The notes: generated by a model from the letters alone, not told the origin. A stretch of DNA of 64,000 bases from an uncultured Lachnospiraceae bacterium (GCA_902780405.1 CACZFI010000002.1:47810-111809); one strand, 5' to 3'. Positions 33,808 through 49,237 are shown, counted from the first letter of the stretch. Made by a program: numbers and translations.

Positions 33808-34014
33808 TTATGCCTGTGTAACACCGTACTTACGGTTGAACTTATCGATTCTACCTCTTGCCTGAGCAGCCTTCTGCTGGCCTGTGTAGAATGAATGGCA
33901 CTTGGAACAGATTTCCACGTGGATCTCTTCCTTGGTAGAACCTGTTACGAATTCGTTTCCGCAGTTACATACAACCTTTGCCTGATAGTACTCAGGATGG
34001 ATGCCTTCTCTCAT
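33808..34014 (-). CDS. rpmE: 50S ribosomal protein L31 (Zn-binding type)
   Basis: [23 protein letters not shown] and [11 protein letters not shown]. Confidence 0.97.
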
Positions 34015-34103: not shown

Positions 34104-34135
34104 GCGTTTTTTAGCGGAATTCACAAGATGCACTC

Positions 34136-34264
34136 CACCGGACACATACTTGTTTCAGGGGACGCTCCCGCTTCGATCTCACACGCAGCGGTACTAAGCT
34201 CAGCTGATGCTTCGCTAAGTGCCGGCGTGTTCGGCGACCCCGTTCAACAAGCATGTGTCCGGTG
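34136..34264 (+). repeat. Structured dispersed repeat, copy 1 (REP/MITE-like)
   Basis: Terminal inverted repeat CACCGGACACATACTTGTT...AACAAGCATGTGTCCGGTG; the interior is nearly identical to the reverse complement of 48195-48321. Confidence 0.85.
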
Positions 34265-34294
34265 TCGCTGTATTTCTGGATTCTGTAACACTTT

Positions 34295-34317
34295 CGTAAT
34301 GGGGTCAGGCACCTTTT
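34295..34317. repeat. 23-bp direct repeat, copy A (CGTAATGGGGTCAGGCACCTTTT)
   Basis: Identical to 34629-34651. Confidence 0.95.
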
Positions 34318-34581
34318 TGTTCCTTCATTTTTCTATATAGTTCTGCTAATTCCAACAATTCAATTCCCAGTCCATCTTCATGATTCCATGAATCAACTAT
34401 CACCCTAGGATATAACAAAGGCAGACATTTGCGTATCATTGTTTTTTCTAACTCTTTTAAGATGCTAATCAATTGTGTTTTGTTTTTTTTTGCTTCTACC
34501 AAGTTCAACAGCTTCTATTTCTAATTTTAGCTTTTGTTGAATCTCCATGTTTTTTTTCTTGAAGTCGGCTTCTAATGACAT
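34305..34581 (-). pseudogene. AT-rich ~91-aa ORF split by a +1 frameshift at an A9 tract
   Basis: GGAGG RBS and ATG at 34581. As read, it stops at 34465 after 38 aa. Deleting one A of the A9 tract (34483-34491) joins it to the 34305-34508 frame, whose TGA lies inside repeat A. Confidence 0.65.
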
Positions 34582-34628
34582 TTAATCAAATCCTCCAAAT
34601 CATTTATGTACCACTGCCTTGCACCACC

Positions 34629-34651
34629 CGTAATGGGGTCAGGCACCTTTT
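34629..34651. repeat. 23-bp direct repeat, copy B
   Basis: Identical to 34295-34317. Confidence 0.95.
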
Positions 34652-34705
34652 CTCGGCACTTTTTCTCGCTAAATTATACTAACAGCACATTTCTATTTTC
34701 TGTTT

Positions 34706-34975
34706 CTAGTTAGGAATTCTCATAATAAACGCTTTTAAAGCTTTTTCCCCTTTTTCACTTAATAATAACTCTAATGCTGTCTTTCCATCAAATTTCCGAA
34801 GCGGAGTATTAAACCAGTCGCCCCCATTATTCCCTATTATCGAATAAACCGCATTTATCACATCCTGAGGAACACCCTTGATTATAATATCGACTTTATC
34901 GAAACAATTAGCAAAATCTATCCAATCATCATCATTGTATTCATCATAGAAAAAATCAATCATATTCAATGTCAA
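34706..34975 (-). CDS. Small AT-rich protein with an Xre/MbcA/ParS-like C-terminal motif (start uncertain)
   Basis: DWFNTPLRKFDGKTALELLLSEKGEKALKAFIMRI resembles the WLxxPxxxLGGxxPLxLL...G...RI toxin-binding consensus. Confidence 0.55.
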   Translation of the reverse strand: MTLNMIDFFYDEYNDDDWIDFANCFDKVDIIIKGVPQDVINAVYSIIGNNGGDWFNTPLRKFDGKTALELLLSEKGEKALKAFIMRIPN

Positions 34976-34976
34976 T

Positions 34977-35105
34977 TCACCCCCACTTGGTTATATTATC
35001 AATCAACTCCTGTTTATTCATATTTTCAAATATGTATATTCCTTGCCAAAGCCTGTCAATTCCATCTTTCCAGTTTTCATATTCACTCTTGTTAGCCTGC
35101 TCCAT
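34977..35105 (-). CDS. Possible 42-aa ORF or gene remnant
   Basis: Hand translation: MEQANKSEYENWKDGIDRLWQGIYIFENMNKQELIDNITKWG*. Weak AAGGA RBS; fills the gap between the ATPase and the MbcA-like ORF. Confidence 0.35.
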   Translation of the reverse strand: MEQANKSEYENWKDGIDRLWQGIYIFENMNKQELIDNITKWG

Positions 35106-35123
35106 TCTGAATCTATTTCCTTC

Positions 35124-36173
35124 TCAAAACGCTTCCAGCTTACGCTTGACAAACTCCGAAAACCTCGGCAGTTTAACGGATAATACGCCCCATTGCGAGT
35201 CATCAATGACACCTTTATTGGCGAGGCGTTCCTTGTACTGAGAGAATTCGTTTTTCTTCTGTCCGGTCAGTTCTAAAAGCTCCGCTGTCTTCATAGATTC
35301 CTTCTGTGCGATAAAGCTCATGAAGAAGCGATCCTTCTCCGACATCTCAGCCCAGATTTTATTATAGACATAAGCCTCCAGTGCTTCGTCGAAGTGCATG
35401 AGCACATCCTCCGTAAGCTTGTGTTCTTCGCTGTCCCATACGTACTTACCAAGTGCCTGATACGCAAACGGATAACCCTTGGTTTGTCTTGCCAACTCTC
35501 CGGCCTCGTCTTCGCCGATACCTAGTGTGTCGCGATAGCTGTTTTTCATGGCAACAAAATTGAGTGGTGCCATGTGATACTTCGGCGCTCTGTAAAGGAA
35601 TGTCAGATTCTTCTCATCTTCAAGATTGTGGATGTTCTCATACAATCCCGCCATAACCAGATAAATTGGCAGTTCCTGTCGCACCATAATCTGAAAGCTT
35701 CCCGCAAATTGTTTCATGGATGCAGTATTACACACCTCATCAACAGTAACCAGCAAGCGCTTATTCTTCTTTTTCATTTCCGTAAGAATCTTCTCTAATG
35801 CTGCTTCGATGTCTGCGGTCGGCGGTACATTTTTCACAGAAACACCGATTCCGAAAGCCGAGAGATTGATTCCCTTTTCGAAAAACTTTTTGAAATCGCC
35901 GTCATGATCATAAATCTTGGCAACCAGACTGTTCAACATATCCCTTTCCGTGTTGAGTCCGATTACAATCCAGTCTTTCTGCTCGCGAATGCGACTCTCG
36001 ATTGCTGTCATCGTGACTGTTTTTCCGGATCCGCGCACACCGCACAGCATAAAGCACTGATTCTGCACAATGTCGGATTCCAACTCATCCACTATCTCAT
36101 CCACGACCAGCCCTCGTTCAATATACTGATGTGGTTTTCTTCCGAAAGATAAAACATACGGATTCTTATCCAT
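35124..36173 (-). CDS. Accessory AAA+/P-loop ATPase with a probable C-terminal winged helix
   Basis: NPYVLSFG, CGVRGSGKT, VTVDEV, TKGYPFAYQ and C-terminal FSQYKERLANKGVI. Confidence 0.85.
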   Translation of the reverse strand: MDKNPYVLSFGRKPHQYIERGLVVDEIVDELESDIVQNQCFMLCGVRGSGKTVTMTAIESRIREQKDWIVIGLNTERDMLNSLVAKIYDHDGDFKKFFEKGINLSAFGIGVSVKNVPPTADIEAALEKILTEMKKKNKRLLVTVDEVCNTASMKQFAGSFQIMVRQELPIYLVMAGLYENIHNLEDEKNLTFLYRAPKYHMAPLNFVAMKNSYRDTLGIGEDEAGELARQTKGYPFAYQALGKYVWDSEEHKLTEDVLMHFDEALEAYVYNKIWAEMSEKDRFFMSFIAQKESMKTAELLELTGQKKNEFSQYKERLANKGVIDDSQWGVLSVKLPRFSEFVKRKLEAF

Positions 36174-36199
36174 AATACTCGCCTCATTTCTGTTCTGCT

Positions 36200-36284
36200 T
36201 ATATACTTTTCATACTCTTATATACTTCTATATACTTTATATACTCTTATATACTTTTGAATTCATTATATACTCTTATATACT
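36200..36284. repeat. Array of seven TATATACT octamers at ~9-10 bp spacing
   Basis: Copies start at 36200, 36219, 36229, 36238, 36248, 36267 and 36277, with a partial CATACT at 36211. Confidence 0.9.
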
Positions 36285-36307
36285 TTTTTGTCAATCGAAC
36301 AGAATCT

Positions 36308-36348
36308 AAAAAACACTGCATCATTCCGCACGGAAACGATGCAGTGTC
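36308..36348 (-). terminator. rho terminator
   Basis: ACACTGCATC...GATGCAGTGT stem followed by TTTTT on the minus strand. Confidence 0.8.
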
Positions 36349-36353
36349 AAAGA

Positions 36354-37913
36354 TTACTTGCGCATTAAAGCCTTCTTTACGTGGTACACGAATTCTTTGT
36401 TATCTTTGGTGCGGGAGAAGAGTTTTAGGATCTCGTCGGTGTACTCTTCGGCCTTGGCGCCGGAGATGGCCTTGTGGATCAGATTCACAGCTTCCTGCTC
36501 TTCTTCGGTGAGAAGGAGGTCTTCGCGTCTGGTTCCGGAGCGCGTGATGTCGATGGCCGGGAAGATACGCTTCTCGGACAGCTTTCTGTCAAGAACGAGT
36601 TCCATGTTACCGGTACCCTTGAATTCCTCGAAGACAACGTCATCCATACGGCTTCCGGTCTCAACAAGTGCGGTTGCAAGGATGGTGAGACTTCCTCCCT
36701 CGCGCATGTTACGGGCCGCACCGAAGAACCGCTTCGGCATATGCAGTGCCGCCGGATCAAGTCCGCCGGAAAGTGTACGTCCGCTGGGCGGAACGGTCAG
36801 GTTGTAGGCTCTGGCGAGTCTGGTGATGGAATCAAGCAGGATGACCACATCCTGTCCGTGCTCCACGAGACGCTTGGCGCGCTCGATCACCATCTCGGAT
36901 ACACGCTTATGATGCTCGGGAAGCTCATCAAAGGTCGAGTAGATCACCTCTACATTATCTCCCTCGATGGACTCACGGATATCCGTAACCTCCTCGGGTC
37001 GCTCGTCGATCAAAAGAACGATCAAATGCATGTCTTTATTGTTGCGGCTGATGCACTTCGCGATCGCCTTAAGGAGTGTCGTCTTACCGGCTTTCGGCGG
37101 CGAAACGATCATACCTCTCTGTCCCTTACCGATAGGAGAAAGAATGTCTACGATACGAACCGCCACGGAAGCACCGGGCACATCCATATGAATCCTGTCA
37201 TCCGGGAAGATGGGCGTTAAATCCTCGAAAGGTGTACGCTTTGCAGCCACAGAGGGCTTGTATCCGTTCACATGTCTGATATAAAGGAGCGCAGAGAACT
37301 TCTCGCTCTGTGTCTTGATGCGGATGGGTCCGCCGATAATATCGCCCTTCTTTAAGGCAAATTTCTTGATCTGTACGGGTGATACATAGACATCGCGATC
37401 GCCGGGCAGGTAATTGGCGCTTCGTATGAATCCGTAACCCTCGTTCATAACCTCGAGGATACCGTCAGCCTCTTCGCCACTGTCTAAGTTGGCATTATAC
37501 TCCTGACCGTCATAGATTTTGATATCCGTATCCCCGTCCGGTGTCTCGGGCTCTAAGTTTCTCTGCTCCTGATAGTTCCTGTCCTCGGTCTGTACATGAC
37601 GCAGGATGGTCTTCTCCGTACGCTGCTCAGGACGTCGCTCCGCACGGTCGCTCTCGGAAACAGCCGCACGTTTTTTATCGGCGGGGCGCTGCTCTGCCGG
37701 CTTTTCGGTAGCAGGTCTTCCGGTCGTACGCCTTTTTTCTGCAGGCTTTTCGGACACAGTTTCCTCCTGCGCCTGGTTTCTCTTGGCAAACATCATCTCA
37801 ACATTGGTGAGAAGTTCTACAAGTTCGCCTTTTTTAAGGGTGGTGATACCACGAATCCCCTTCTCCTTTGCGAGTTCACGCAACTCGGCAAGGGACATCT
37901 TGTTGTAGTCCAT
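36354..37913 (-). CDS. rho: Transcription termination factor Rho
   Basis: [30 protein letters not shown] and [10 protein letters not shown]; N-terminal charged insert. Start reassigned to MDYNKMS behind AAAGGAG. Confidence 0.97.
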
Positions 37914-38021
37914 ATGATCTCCTTTATGTAATTCCAAAAAAAGTTTGTATGGGTAACGTAAGAACTCTGATTTAGATAAGATGAGTCTAACACAAATAAA
38001 AGAAAAGGTCTACTAAAATAT

Positions 38022-47957: not shown

Positions 47958-48175
47958 GCGCCTTGCATATGCCGACTGCCTTGCCGGACACGTTCGCACT
48001 AAGGTGGTAGGAATCCTGACGGATTCCCATGAAGTCGCTCAAAGCCGCGACGGGCTGTCTGCATCATAGATGCAGACCTGATTCCGCACGCAGCGGACGC
48101 TAAGCTCGAAAGAACCTCGCTAAGCGCCGGCGGCTCCACATTGTCCTTGCAATGCAGCCGCATACGCATCGGCGC
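47958..48175 (+). repeat. Structured dispersed repeat, copy 3 (expanded, with extra internal hairpins)
   Basis: Outer stem GCGCC...GGACA / TGTCC...GGCGC; core CGCAGCGGACGCTAAGCTC...CTCGCTAAGCGCCGGCG. Confidence 0.75.
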
Positions 48176-48194
48176 AGGACGACATTTCAGCGAT

Positions 48195-48321
48195 ACCTGT
48201 CATATGCTTGTTGAACGGGGTCGCCGAACACGCCGGCACTTAGCGAAGCTTCAGCTGAGCTTAGTACCGTTGCGTGTGAGATCGAAGCGAAAGCGTCCCC
48301 TGAGGCAAGCGTATGACAGGT
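48195..48321 (-). repeat. Structured dispersed repeat, copy 2
   Basis: Reverse complement of the copy 1 interior; own terminal stem ACCTGTCATATGCTTG/CAAGCGTATGACAGGT. Confidence 0.85.
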
Positions 48322-48382
48322 GAGCGCCAAGCGAATCATCTACATATCTTATCGGTAGCGGCCGCCCCTGATATTAGGCAGA

Positions 48383-49098: not shown

Positions 49099-49237
49099 CA
49101 GTCGGCGAGCAGGTTGTGTTGCCTGGACACGCTTGCGCTAAATTCAGCTCGCAGCGGTACTAGGCTCGACAATACCTCGCCAAGTACCGGCGGCTTCATG
49201 TTGTCCTGGCAACGCAACCACTCGCCGCCCGACACTG
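49099..49237 (+). repeat. Structured dispersed repeat, copy 4 (fills the mtnN 5' region)
   Basis: Stem GGCGAG..GGTTGTGTTGCC.GGACA / TGTCC.GGCAACGCAACC.CTCGCC; core CGCAGCGGTACTAGGCTC...CTCGCCAAGTACCGGCG. Confidence 0.8.

Follow-up and report, generated by a model that had tools for sequence, protein, structure and literature searches.

GTAG-type repetitive extragenic palindromic sequences (REPs) lie downstream of open reading frames (ORFs) and donate stop codons to them (PMC3733652). Repeats tied to genes of group 1 REP-associated tyrosine transposases (RAYTs) are also of a kind already known: in 2013, Di Nocera et al. described the terminal inverted repeat (TIR)-associated tyrosine transposases (TIRYTs), whose flanking repeats share GGGGWSAS and among which an Acidobacteria group is included (PMC3733652). 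RAYT group 1 corresponds to TnpA-Y1 subclass 2.1 (PMC6006769; PMC5581495, Bertels 2017), with NH[YF]H and Y[IV]HLNP as signatures (PMC6006769). Here, we analyze a pair of short direct repeats, each downstream of a small ORF, that lies between the rho and rpmE genes in a 64,000-nucleotide stretch of DNA (the window) from an uncultured Lachnospiraceae bacterium (GCA_902780405.1, CACZFI010000002.1:47810-111809). Taken as a whole, the locus is quite probably best explained by truncated repeats of the REP/TIR type, which have an enzyme of the TIRYT kind elsewhere and act as joints in the slot of an accessory island.

The 23-mer CGTAATGGGGTCAGGCACCTTTT is present on the plus strand at 34295-34317 (copy A) and 34629-34651 (copy B), exact at both positions and 334 bp apart, as had been claimed in a reading made before any database search (the sequence-only reading). 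No further match with three or fewer mismatches was found in the whole window (100 shuffles gave none either), and extra matches to the 13-mer core were at chance level there. Outside the window the repeat is dispersed. With one genome taken per species, the inner 20-mer was matched exactly at 15 genome loci, from a Lachnospiraceae metagenome-assembled genome (MAG), Pseudobutyrivibrio ruminis and an Acidobacteria MAG; the 18-mer GTAATGGGGTCAGGCACC was found at 88 genome loci, 117 metagenome loci and on 2 viral contigs. About 17 matches to the 18-mer are expected by chance in the genome collection (2 x 596e9 / 4^18), and 18-mer singletons in odd phyla may be such chance matches. Public genomes and metagenomes together contain 273 distinct copies of the 18-mer, dozens of them in the Lachnospiraceae MAGs RUI524 and CAMNGU01; Pseudobutyrivibrio, Butyrivibrio fibrisolvens 16/4 and others have a few. 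The G+C (GC) content of the metagenome loci is between 0.33 and 0.70.

Family copies are found as singles, tandems and inverted pairs. The consensus of 147 copies reads, on the motif strand, GTAAC-N6-GTAAT-GGGGTCAGGCACC-ATTAC. The unit contains two TTAC/GTAA pentamers and forms a hairpin in which GTAATGG pairs with CCATTAC; on single-strand folding, the consensus unit scored z -4.1 and -3.6. A literature search for the core sequence returned no paper with it and one unrelated oligonucleotide. In the high-GC Acidobacteria MAG fen_186 (loci L001, L002, L006, L011-L013 and L015 of our collection), the 18-mer carries a fixed extension, TTTTCTCA-N4-AGTCTCATTTT, the TTTTCTC part of which is also seen at window copy B.

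Genes for RAYT-like enzymes of the Y1/HUH class adjoin repeat copies at 12 loci, six in genomes (L006, L009, L184, L172, L176 and L180) and six in metagenomes. In the Acidobacteria locus (L006) the Y1 gene is flanked by inverted repeat copies, and in the five Lachnospiraceae loci by direct ones. The repeat-adjacent proteins match Pfam Y1_Tnp (1.4e-13 and 3.8e-09) and score 79.5 bits with NCBIfam REP_Tyr_transpos, just below the cut-off of 80. The Lachnospiraceae proteins carry NHFH and YIHLNP, which correspond to the subclass 2.1 signatures, and GGGGTCAG, carried by both window copies, fits GGGGWSAS. The adjacency of the Y1 genes, the subclass signatures and the fit to GGGGWSAS together bear out the earlier guess, made from the window alone, that the core is REP-like and served by a RAYT/Y1 enzyme. 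Two further features of the Lachnospiraceae TIRYT loci were noticed. A small Xre-type helix-turn-helix gene lies upstream of the enzyme gene in L184 (2148-2705), L172 (3899-4444), L176 (3727-4272) and L009 (1493-2056), and the proteins end in ...ELWLPW, the L009 gene being cut short by a repeat copy at ...FVEGA*.

The family resembles the published TIRYT repeats, or TIRtrons (PMC3733652), in that a RAYT-like Y1/HUH gene is flanked by GGGGWSAS repeats occurring as singles, dimers and clusters, an Acidobacteria subgroup exists and the enzymes contain NH[YF]H and Y[IV]HLNP. It differs from them in that the flanking copies in Lachnospiraceae are direct rather than inverted, a short hairpin with GTAA feet takes the place of a long TIR, and an identical 18-mer is common to several phyla. 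With the classical REP and REPIN (REP doublet)-RAYT systems of Escherichia and Pseudomonas, which have GTAG feet, it shares short extragenic hairpin repeats arranged singly, in tandem or as inverted doublets, adjacency to a single-copy Y1 gene, and a position mainly downstream of ORFs to which a stop codon is often given. In contrast to those systems, the foot is GTAA(T/C) and not GTAG or GTGG, the stem (GTAATGG) is AT-rich and encloses a GC-rich loop of 9 nt, the enzyme is of a different subclass and the window copies are half units.

As to the window copies themselves, copy A reads GTAAT GGGGTCAGGCACC on the plus strand and AAAAGGTGCCTGACCCCATTACG in the mRNA sense on the minus strand. Its 5' extension GTAACACTTTC, from 34284, completes the GTAAC-N6-GTAAT-core arrangement, its homology to other family copies spans 34279-34322, and the 3' ATTAC arm of the hairpin is missing. 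Copy B, also on the plus strand, consists of the core alone, lacks GTAAC-N6 and continues into TTTTCTC as the Acidobacteria copies do. TTTT occupies the position of the ATTAC arm in both, and A and B are different sub-variants of the family. Neither strand of either copy folded better than shuffled sequences (z 0.06 to 0.9). The window copies are truncated half units without the hairpin arm, and are probably inert relics and not active substrates. Other identities were tried for them and rejected: a terminator (there is no T-run terminator pattern at A or B), a sigma-54 promoter of the GGCAC-N5 type (by eye, the downstream TTGC is missing in every sub-variant) and an attC site (by repeat length and the lack of a fold at the window copies). 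No Rfam family reached its gathering score anywhere in the window, the only match near the repeats being a 14.5-bit chance one to Clostridiales-3, and no tRNA or tmRNA genes were found in the window.

Gene positions around the repeat came from a crude ORF caller, and copies from the same genome do not count as independent; with these reservations, 135 of 148 copies fall between genes, with a preference for the first bases after a gene. Where the neighbouring genes are co-directional, 72 copies lie in the sense orientation, in which the upstream stop codon faces the GGCACC end and the mRNA reads GGUGCCUGACCCCAUUAC, versus 24 in the opposite one. Donation of stop codons is frequent: the repeat's own TGA closes an open frame of at least 80 codons in 28 of the 273 distinct copies, compared to 11 and 6 for the other two frames. 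L009 has eight copies, all in one orientation and each behind a gene; these include genes for a HAD hydrolase, an esterase ending in ...RAGA* and the Y1 protein. The repeat is found equally often after ordinary housekeeping-type genes. The window's own species has a third copy (L122, MAG CAMOHF01, Rho 99% identical), at an unrelated site where the GC content is normal and the TAG stop of an ordinary 122-aa gene overlaps the first G of the repeat.

This habit could be read as a host function at gene ends, with the repeat acting as a two-frame stop or as a 3'-end RNA hairpin that stabilizes or terminates transcripts rather than being a relic of a mobile element. The sense bias, the copies beside stop codons, the hairpin of the consensus unit and the proposal that REPs act as RNA elements (PMC3733652) are all in line with it. 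On the other hand, the window copies do not fold and have no T-run terminator pattern, and single-strand transposition on the lagging-strand template would account for the orientation bias just as well (PMC6006769). We consider a host function very unlikely.

Between the rho terminator (36348-36312, minus strand) and the rpmE promoter, the window contains a lineage-specific insertion of ca. 2.2 kb (approximately 34116-36311). Rho (36354-37937) and rpmE (33808-34011, with a conserved promoter from about 34115) are both on the minus strand and are separated by 2330 bp, as opposed to 100-280 bp in all but two of ~60 related Lachnospiraceae loci with both genes, and the nearest species (L017) becomes similar again from the rpmE promoter (~34115) onward. 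It follows from the short gap in relatives and the point at which similarity resumes that the region was inserted in this lineage; the island is foreign. On the minus strand the order is rho, terminator, promoter, ATPase gene, 42-aa ORF, 89-aa ORF, repeat B, a frameshifted gene, repeat A, a hairpin element, the rpmE promoter and rpmE. GC content is 0.31-0.37 across 34300-35100 and about 0.5 in the surroundings, so that the small low-GC ORF previously described in front of each copy is indeed there. A candidate inverted repeat at the ends of the island, TTTCTGGATTCTGT/ACAGAATCTAAAAA (34273 and 36299), was rejected as being of chance quality, one of many 14-nt pairs at 86%.

The content of the island varies between strains. 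Alleles were read from assembled rumen-metagenome contigs aligned to the region, in which rare forms are hidden. The DNA between the ATPase stop codon and repeat A (variable slot, 34319-35117, 799 bp, no strand assigned) has at least four alleles, all with the ATPase gene as the conserved left flank. X1 is the window form. In X3, 34318 is joined to 35118, so that the ATPase stop is followed by 12 nt and then by a single repeat (TGAGAAGGAAAAAAGGTGCC...), and the 799 bp are gone. L198 matches the window at 98.4% identity between rho and 35115, beyond which its cargo is another: an 87-aa gene with GGTGCCTGATTCCATTAC behind it, and then a 140-aa gene whose last codons, AAA GGT GCC TGA, lie inside a repeat at the position of copy A. 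The second allele is thus again ORF-repeat-ORF-repeat, with different ORFs, for which no family was found in Pfam or PADLOC. X2 and X4 have a junction identical to that of L198, and X6 departs at 35111 and continues as a repeat-like sequence of opposite orientation. In the alleles that were read through (window, L198 and X3), the end of the variable DNA is some 3 nt or less away from the GGCACC end of repeat A. The sequence-only reading had proposed comparing the rho-rpmE interval among strains; the unit does vary. The Pseudobutyrivibrio loci were considered as a second variable slot and rejected, their common flank being a repeat unit of ~90 nt.

Two perfect direct copies 334 bp apart could in principle mark a local event, such as a target-site duplication, the ends of an insertion sequence (IS) or a 334-bp tandem duplication. 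The same sequence, however, stands at hundreds of unrelated places and in different phyla, the two 334-bp periods are otherwise unalike and no transposase lies between the copies. The wide dispersal and the lack of other similarity between the periods exclude target duplication, IS ends and local duplication for practical purposes. Thus, none of the observations named in advance as fatal to the earlier interpretation (a repeat confined to two sites, an invariant unit, a target duplication or known IS end) was made.

The cargo of the window allele consists of genes of the immunity type. The ORF at 34305-34508 (minus strand) ends ...AAA GGT GCC TGA (KGA-TGA) inside copy A, with GGT GCC TGA coming from the repeat. 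Copy A therefore supplies the last codons and the TGA, as the sequence-only reading had it, with the correction that this ORF is the downstream part of a frameshifted gene (34305-34581, minus strand), a 91-codon frame starting at 34581 once one A is removed from an A9 run near 34480. The read-through frame matches a family of 86-aa proteins (58-63% identity over 95% of the length); intact homologues end in ...LAELYKRWK*, and the window copy continues ...RKMKEQKGA* into repeat A. An independent metagenome contig (L016) is identical across 2619 nt, A9 run included, so the frameshift is no read error of this assembly; judging from the sequence, it is either a true pseudogene or a slippage site. 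In Pseudobutyrivibrio AR14, a homologue of the 86-aa gene sits in an array of small genes of the immunity type, with Imm70, GAD-like/Tdi1_C and DUF7957.

Copy B lies 55 nt past the stop codon of the second ORF (34706-34975, minus strand, 87-89 aa), whose C-terminus weakly matches Xre_MbcA_ParS_C. Its homologues (74-80% protein identity) directly follow RES-domain toxin genes in polymorphic-toxin loci that also hold PT-HINT, Tox-SHH, AHH, SMI1_KNR4 and DUF4303 genes; one of the loci with a homologue (L205) has an IS110-family transposase gene (1109-2287) inside the toxin/immunity locus. Since the homologues follow RES toxins and no toxin precedes the gene here, it is, by homology and position, an orphan immunity gene of the antitoxin type. 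A 42-aa ORF directly upstream (34977-35105, minus strand) is unrelated to the C-termini of RES toxins. Nucleotide identity to the 89-aa ORF homologues (79-84%) is limited to 34703-34984, and no repeat was found after homologues of either the 86-aa or the 89-aa gene in other genomes. Because the homologous loci lack the repeat, ORF and repeat do not form a conserved travelling unit.

These data bear on the proposal, put forward in the sequence-only reading, of integron-like, repeat-guided gene capture. In its explicit form, each ORF with its repeat is a cassette, and the GTAA/TTAC feet are the sites where a Y1/HUH enzyme, encoded elsewhere, cleaves single-stranded DNA, so that segments bounded by repeats are excised and inserted beside another repeat, building orphan-immunity arrays in the manner of integrons and attC sites. 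Two independent alleles have two different ORF blocks, each followed by a repeat, with the last ORF ending in the repeat's TGA, and in the window, L198 and X3 no more than 3 nt separate the GGCACC end of repeat A from the start of the variable DNA. Such capture would also accommodate the eight same-orientation copies in L009, the Lachnospiraceae Y1 genes that lie between direct copies like the ends of IS200/IS605 elements, the two TTAC/GTAA pentamers, which resemble IS608 cleavage and target sites (PMC6006769), and the low-GC cargo of the immunity type, as in rAID-1 (recombinase-associated acquired interbacterial defence) arrays with integron-like intergenic repeats (10.1101/471110). Against this, homologues of both cargo genes stand without the repeat and nucleotide homology stops at the gene ends, the window copies have no hairpin arm, no Y1 gene is present in the window, the repeat also follows housekeeping-type genes and the left boundary of the slot has no repeat. 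Neither an allele lacking just the 334-bp unit nor a circle junction was seen among the assembled contigs. The strain-variable slot with its second ORF-repeat-ORF-repeat allele remains in favour of capture, which, on the data as a whole, we regard as doubtful.

Alternatively, the repeats may have come along passively with the cargo from a repeat-rich donor genome in which a copy would stand behind almost all genes, having no role in the variation of the slot. Repeat-rich Lachnospiraceae with up to 8 copies per 8 kb do occur in the same habitat, the slot is low in GC and foreign-looking, copies are few in the window's species and A and B are different sub-variants. Known relatives of the cargo carry no repeat, however, the short allele keeps one repeat and zero cargo, and the position of repeat A is common to alleles with unrelated cargo. 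Passive transfer is therefore quite unlikely.

We thus return to truncated REP/TIR-type repeats as joints in the slot. By analogy with RAYT-REP systems, a RAYT-like HUH/Y1 enzyme of the TIRYT kind would have spread the repeat, and its copies would then have served as joints at which foreign DNA is inserted or swapped. The likeliest route would be ordinary short-homology or illegitimate recombination beside a resident copy, and the less likely one a Y1 enzyme acting in trans; plain recombination is favoured because the cargo occurs elsewhere without the repeat, no repeat marks the left edge, the hairpin is missing from the window copies and there is no Y1 gene nearby. The appearance of a ribosome-binding site, an ORF and a repeat forming one unit would come from the family's habit of landing at gene ends, and not from a mobile cassette of ORF plus repeat.

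Several points weigh against this explanation. No Y1/RAYT-like gene was found when the 64-kb window was searched by tblastn, and at its left edge (35111-35118) the slot bears no repeat. TTCCTTC is present at both edges of the segment missing from X3 (34320 and 35117), and the short form may therefore have arisen by microhomology deletion instead of being ancestral. Plain illegitimate recombination would predict less order than is seen, given that ORF-repeat-ORF-repeat recurs in a second allele. In the window's species, with 64 kb of the source genome read, just three copies are known (two in the window and one in L122), so that spread within its genome is putative. To our knowledge, transposition of a TIRYT repeat has never been demonstrated. 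Published repeat families of TIRYTs are only "moderately abundant" (PMC3733652), a level that the copy numbers in RUI524 and CAMNGU01 look to exceed by far, and a survey of subclass 2.1 genes found no REP-like sequence near them (Quentin 2018, PMC6006769), unlike what is seen here.

Three other mobile systems are comparable in part. The rAID-1 arrays of Bacteroidales (Ross et al. 2019, 10.1101/471110) likewise combine low-GC co-directional orphan immunity genes with repetitive intergenic sequence and strain-variable content. The present locus differs in its Firmicute host, in having only 2-3 genes, in the lack of a XerD-like recombinase (none was found between rho and rpmE or within 10 kb) and in repeats that are Y1-type REPs and not array-specific. 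Integron cassettes are also promoterless co-directional ORFs each followed by a repeat; here, there is no IntI gene, the gene upstream of the slot encodes an ATPase, the repeat occurs genome-wide after ordinary genes and ORF and repeat do not move together. The repeat is 18-35 nt long versus 57-141 nt with R''/L'' and L'/R' boxes for attC, and neither window copy has a significant fold. IS200/IS605 elements and their miniatures are similar in the Y1/HUH family, in same-orientation subterminal hairpins, in TTAC-like tetranucleotides beside the hairpin and in strand or orientation bias. They differ in that no defined left and right ends surround the cargo here, the enzyme is RAYT-like (Y...NP) rather than a TnpA of the IS200 type, mobility is putative, and both the 334-bp unit and the content of the 799-bp slot were found only at this locus among the DNA fetched. 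The earlier statement that the window holds no integrase or transposase was checked in part: apart from the negative tblastn search for Y1/RAYT-like genes, no integrase or transposase was found in the 10 kb on either side of the island, which are housekeeping (tig, clpX, ysxC and rho on one side; rpmE, DUF1385, prmC, prfA, uppP and hisC on the other).

The remaining features of the island lie to either side of the slot. The P-loop ATPase gene (35124-36173, minus strand) encodes 349 aa with weak ATPase_2/AAA_16/STAND-like matches. Its family is very large (3069 proteins at E<1e-60), nearly confined to rumen Lachnospiraceae and found in many contexts, with two tandem paralogues in L115 and only weak STAND/mad8-like matches. 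A conserved ATPase module was considered and rejected, since 25 loci with ATPase homologues (L097-L121) have neither the small ORFs nor the repeat; a metagenome scan with a pattern for the 3' end of the ATPase gene returned no matches. The ATPase promoter, a perfect consensus TTGACA-18-TATAAT, lies inside a tandem array of about nine copies of TTATATACTT (36198-36296, minus strand). This array has 1-bp and 9-bp indels between strains and resembles iterons or operators.

Beside repeat A lies a separate dispersed hairpin element of 129 nt (34136-34264, minus strand) that is outside the repeat family. A second copy at 48188-48322 (plus strand) is 90% identical, and weaker relatives are found near 48070-48150 and 49140-49200. 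The outer stems show compensatory double changes (ACCGGACACA/TGTGTCCGGT versus ACCTGTCATA/TATGACAGGT), the element folds at z -5.6, contig depth over it in rumen metagenomes is in 5-25 times excess and no Rfam family matches it; possible identities are a miniature mobile element and a structured RNA not yet described. The region upstream of luxS (window 48030-48056) and the rho-rpmE spacer of the nearest species (L017, 3480-3510) have in common the motif GAAGTCGCTCAAAGCCGCGACGGGCT with a hairpin after it, a further small family of intergenic repeats.

No other group of RAYTs is as large or as widespread as group 1 (TIRYTs, subclass 2.1), and it is also the one with the least clear cognate repeats. 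What this analysis adds is a clade of group 1 enzymes in rumen Lachnospiraceae tied to an abundant hairpin repeat. The Lachnospiraceae repeat family and its abundance, the identity of an 18-nt core across phyla and its presence at the edge of a variable orphan-immunity slot all appear to be undescribed, going by the literature search for the core. REP sequences have been described as species-specific (PMC6006769); that the core is the same in phyla so far apart suggests a recognition sequence under tight constraint, which would make an easy biochemical substrate. It is unlikely that REP-like repeats of TIRYTs serve in Firmicutes as attC-like joints through which a Y1/HUH enzyme acting in trans inserts and swaps small immunity genes right beside a resident repeat via single-stranded DNA, but if true, integron-like orphan-immunity arrays would arise from an enzyme class unlike that of integrons or of rAID-1. 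The slot beside rho offers a natural setting in which to ask whether gene exchange is promoted by REP-type repeats, and if they do not promote it, the locus would be a clean example of a gene-end repeat that mimics a cassette array.

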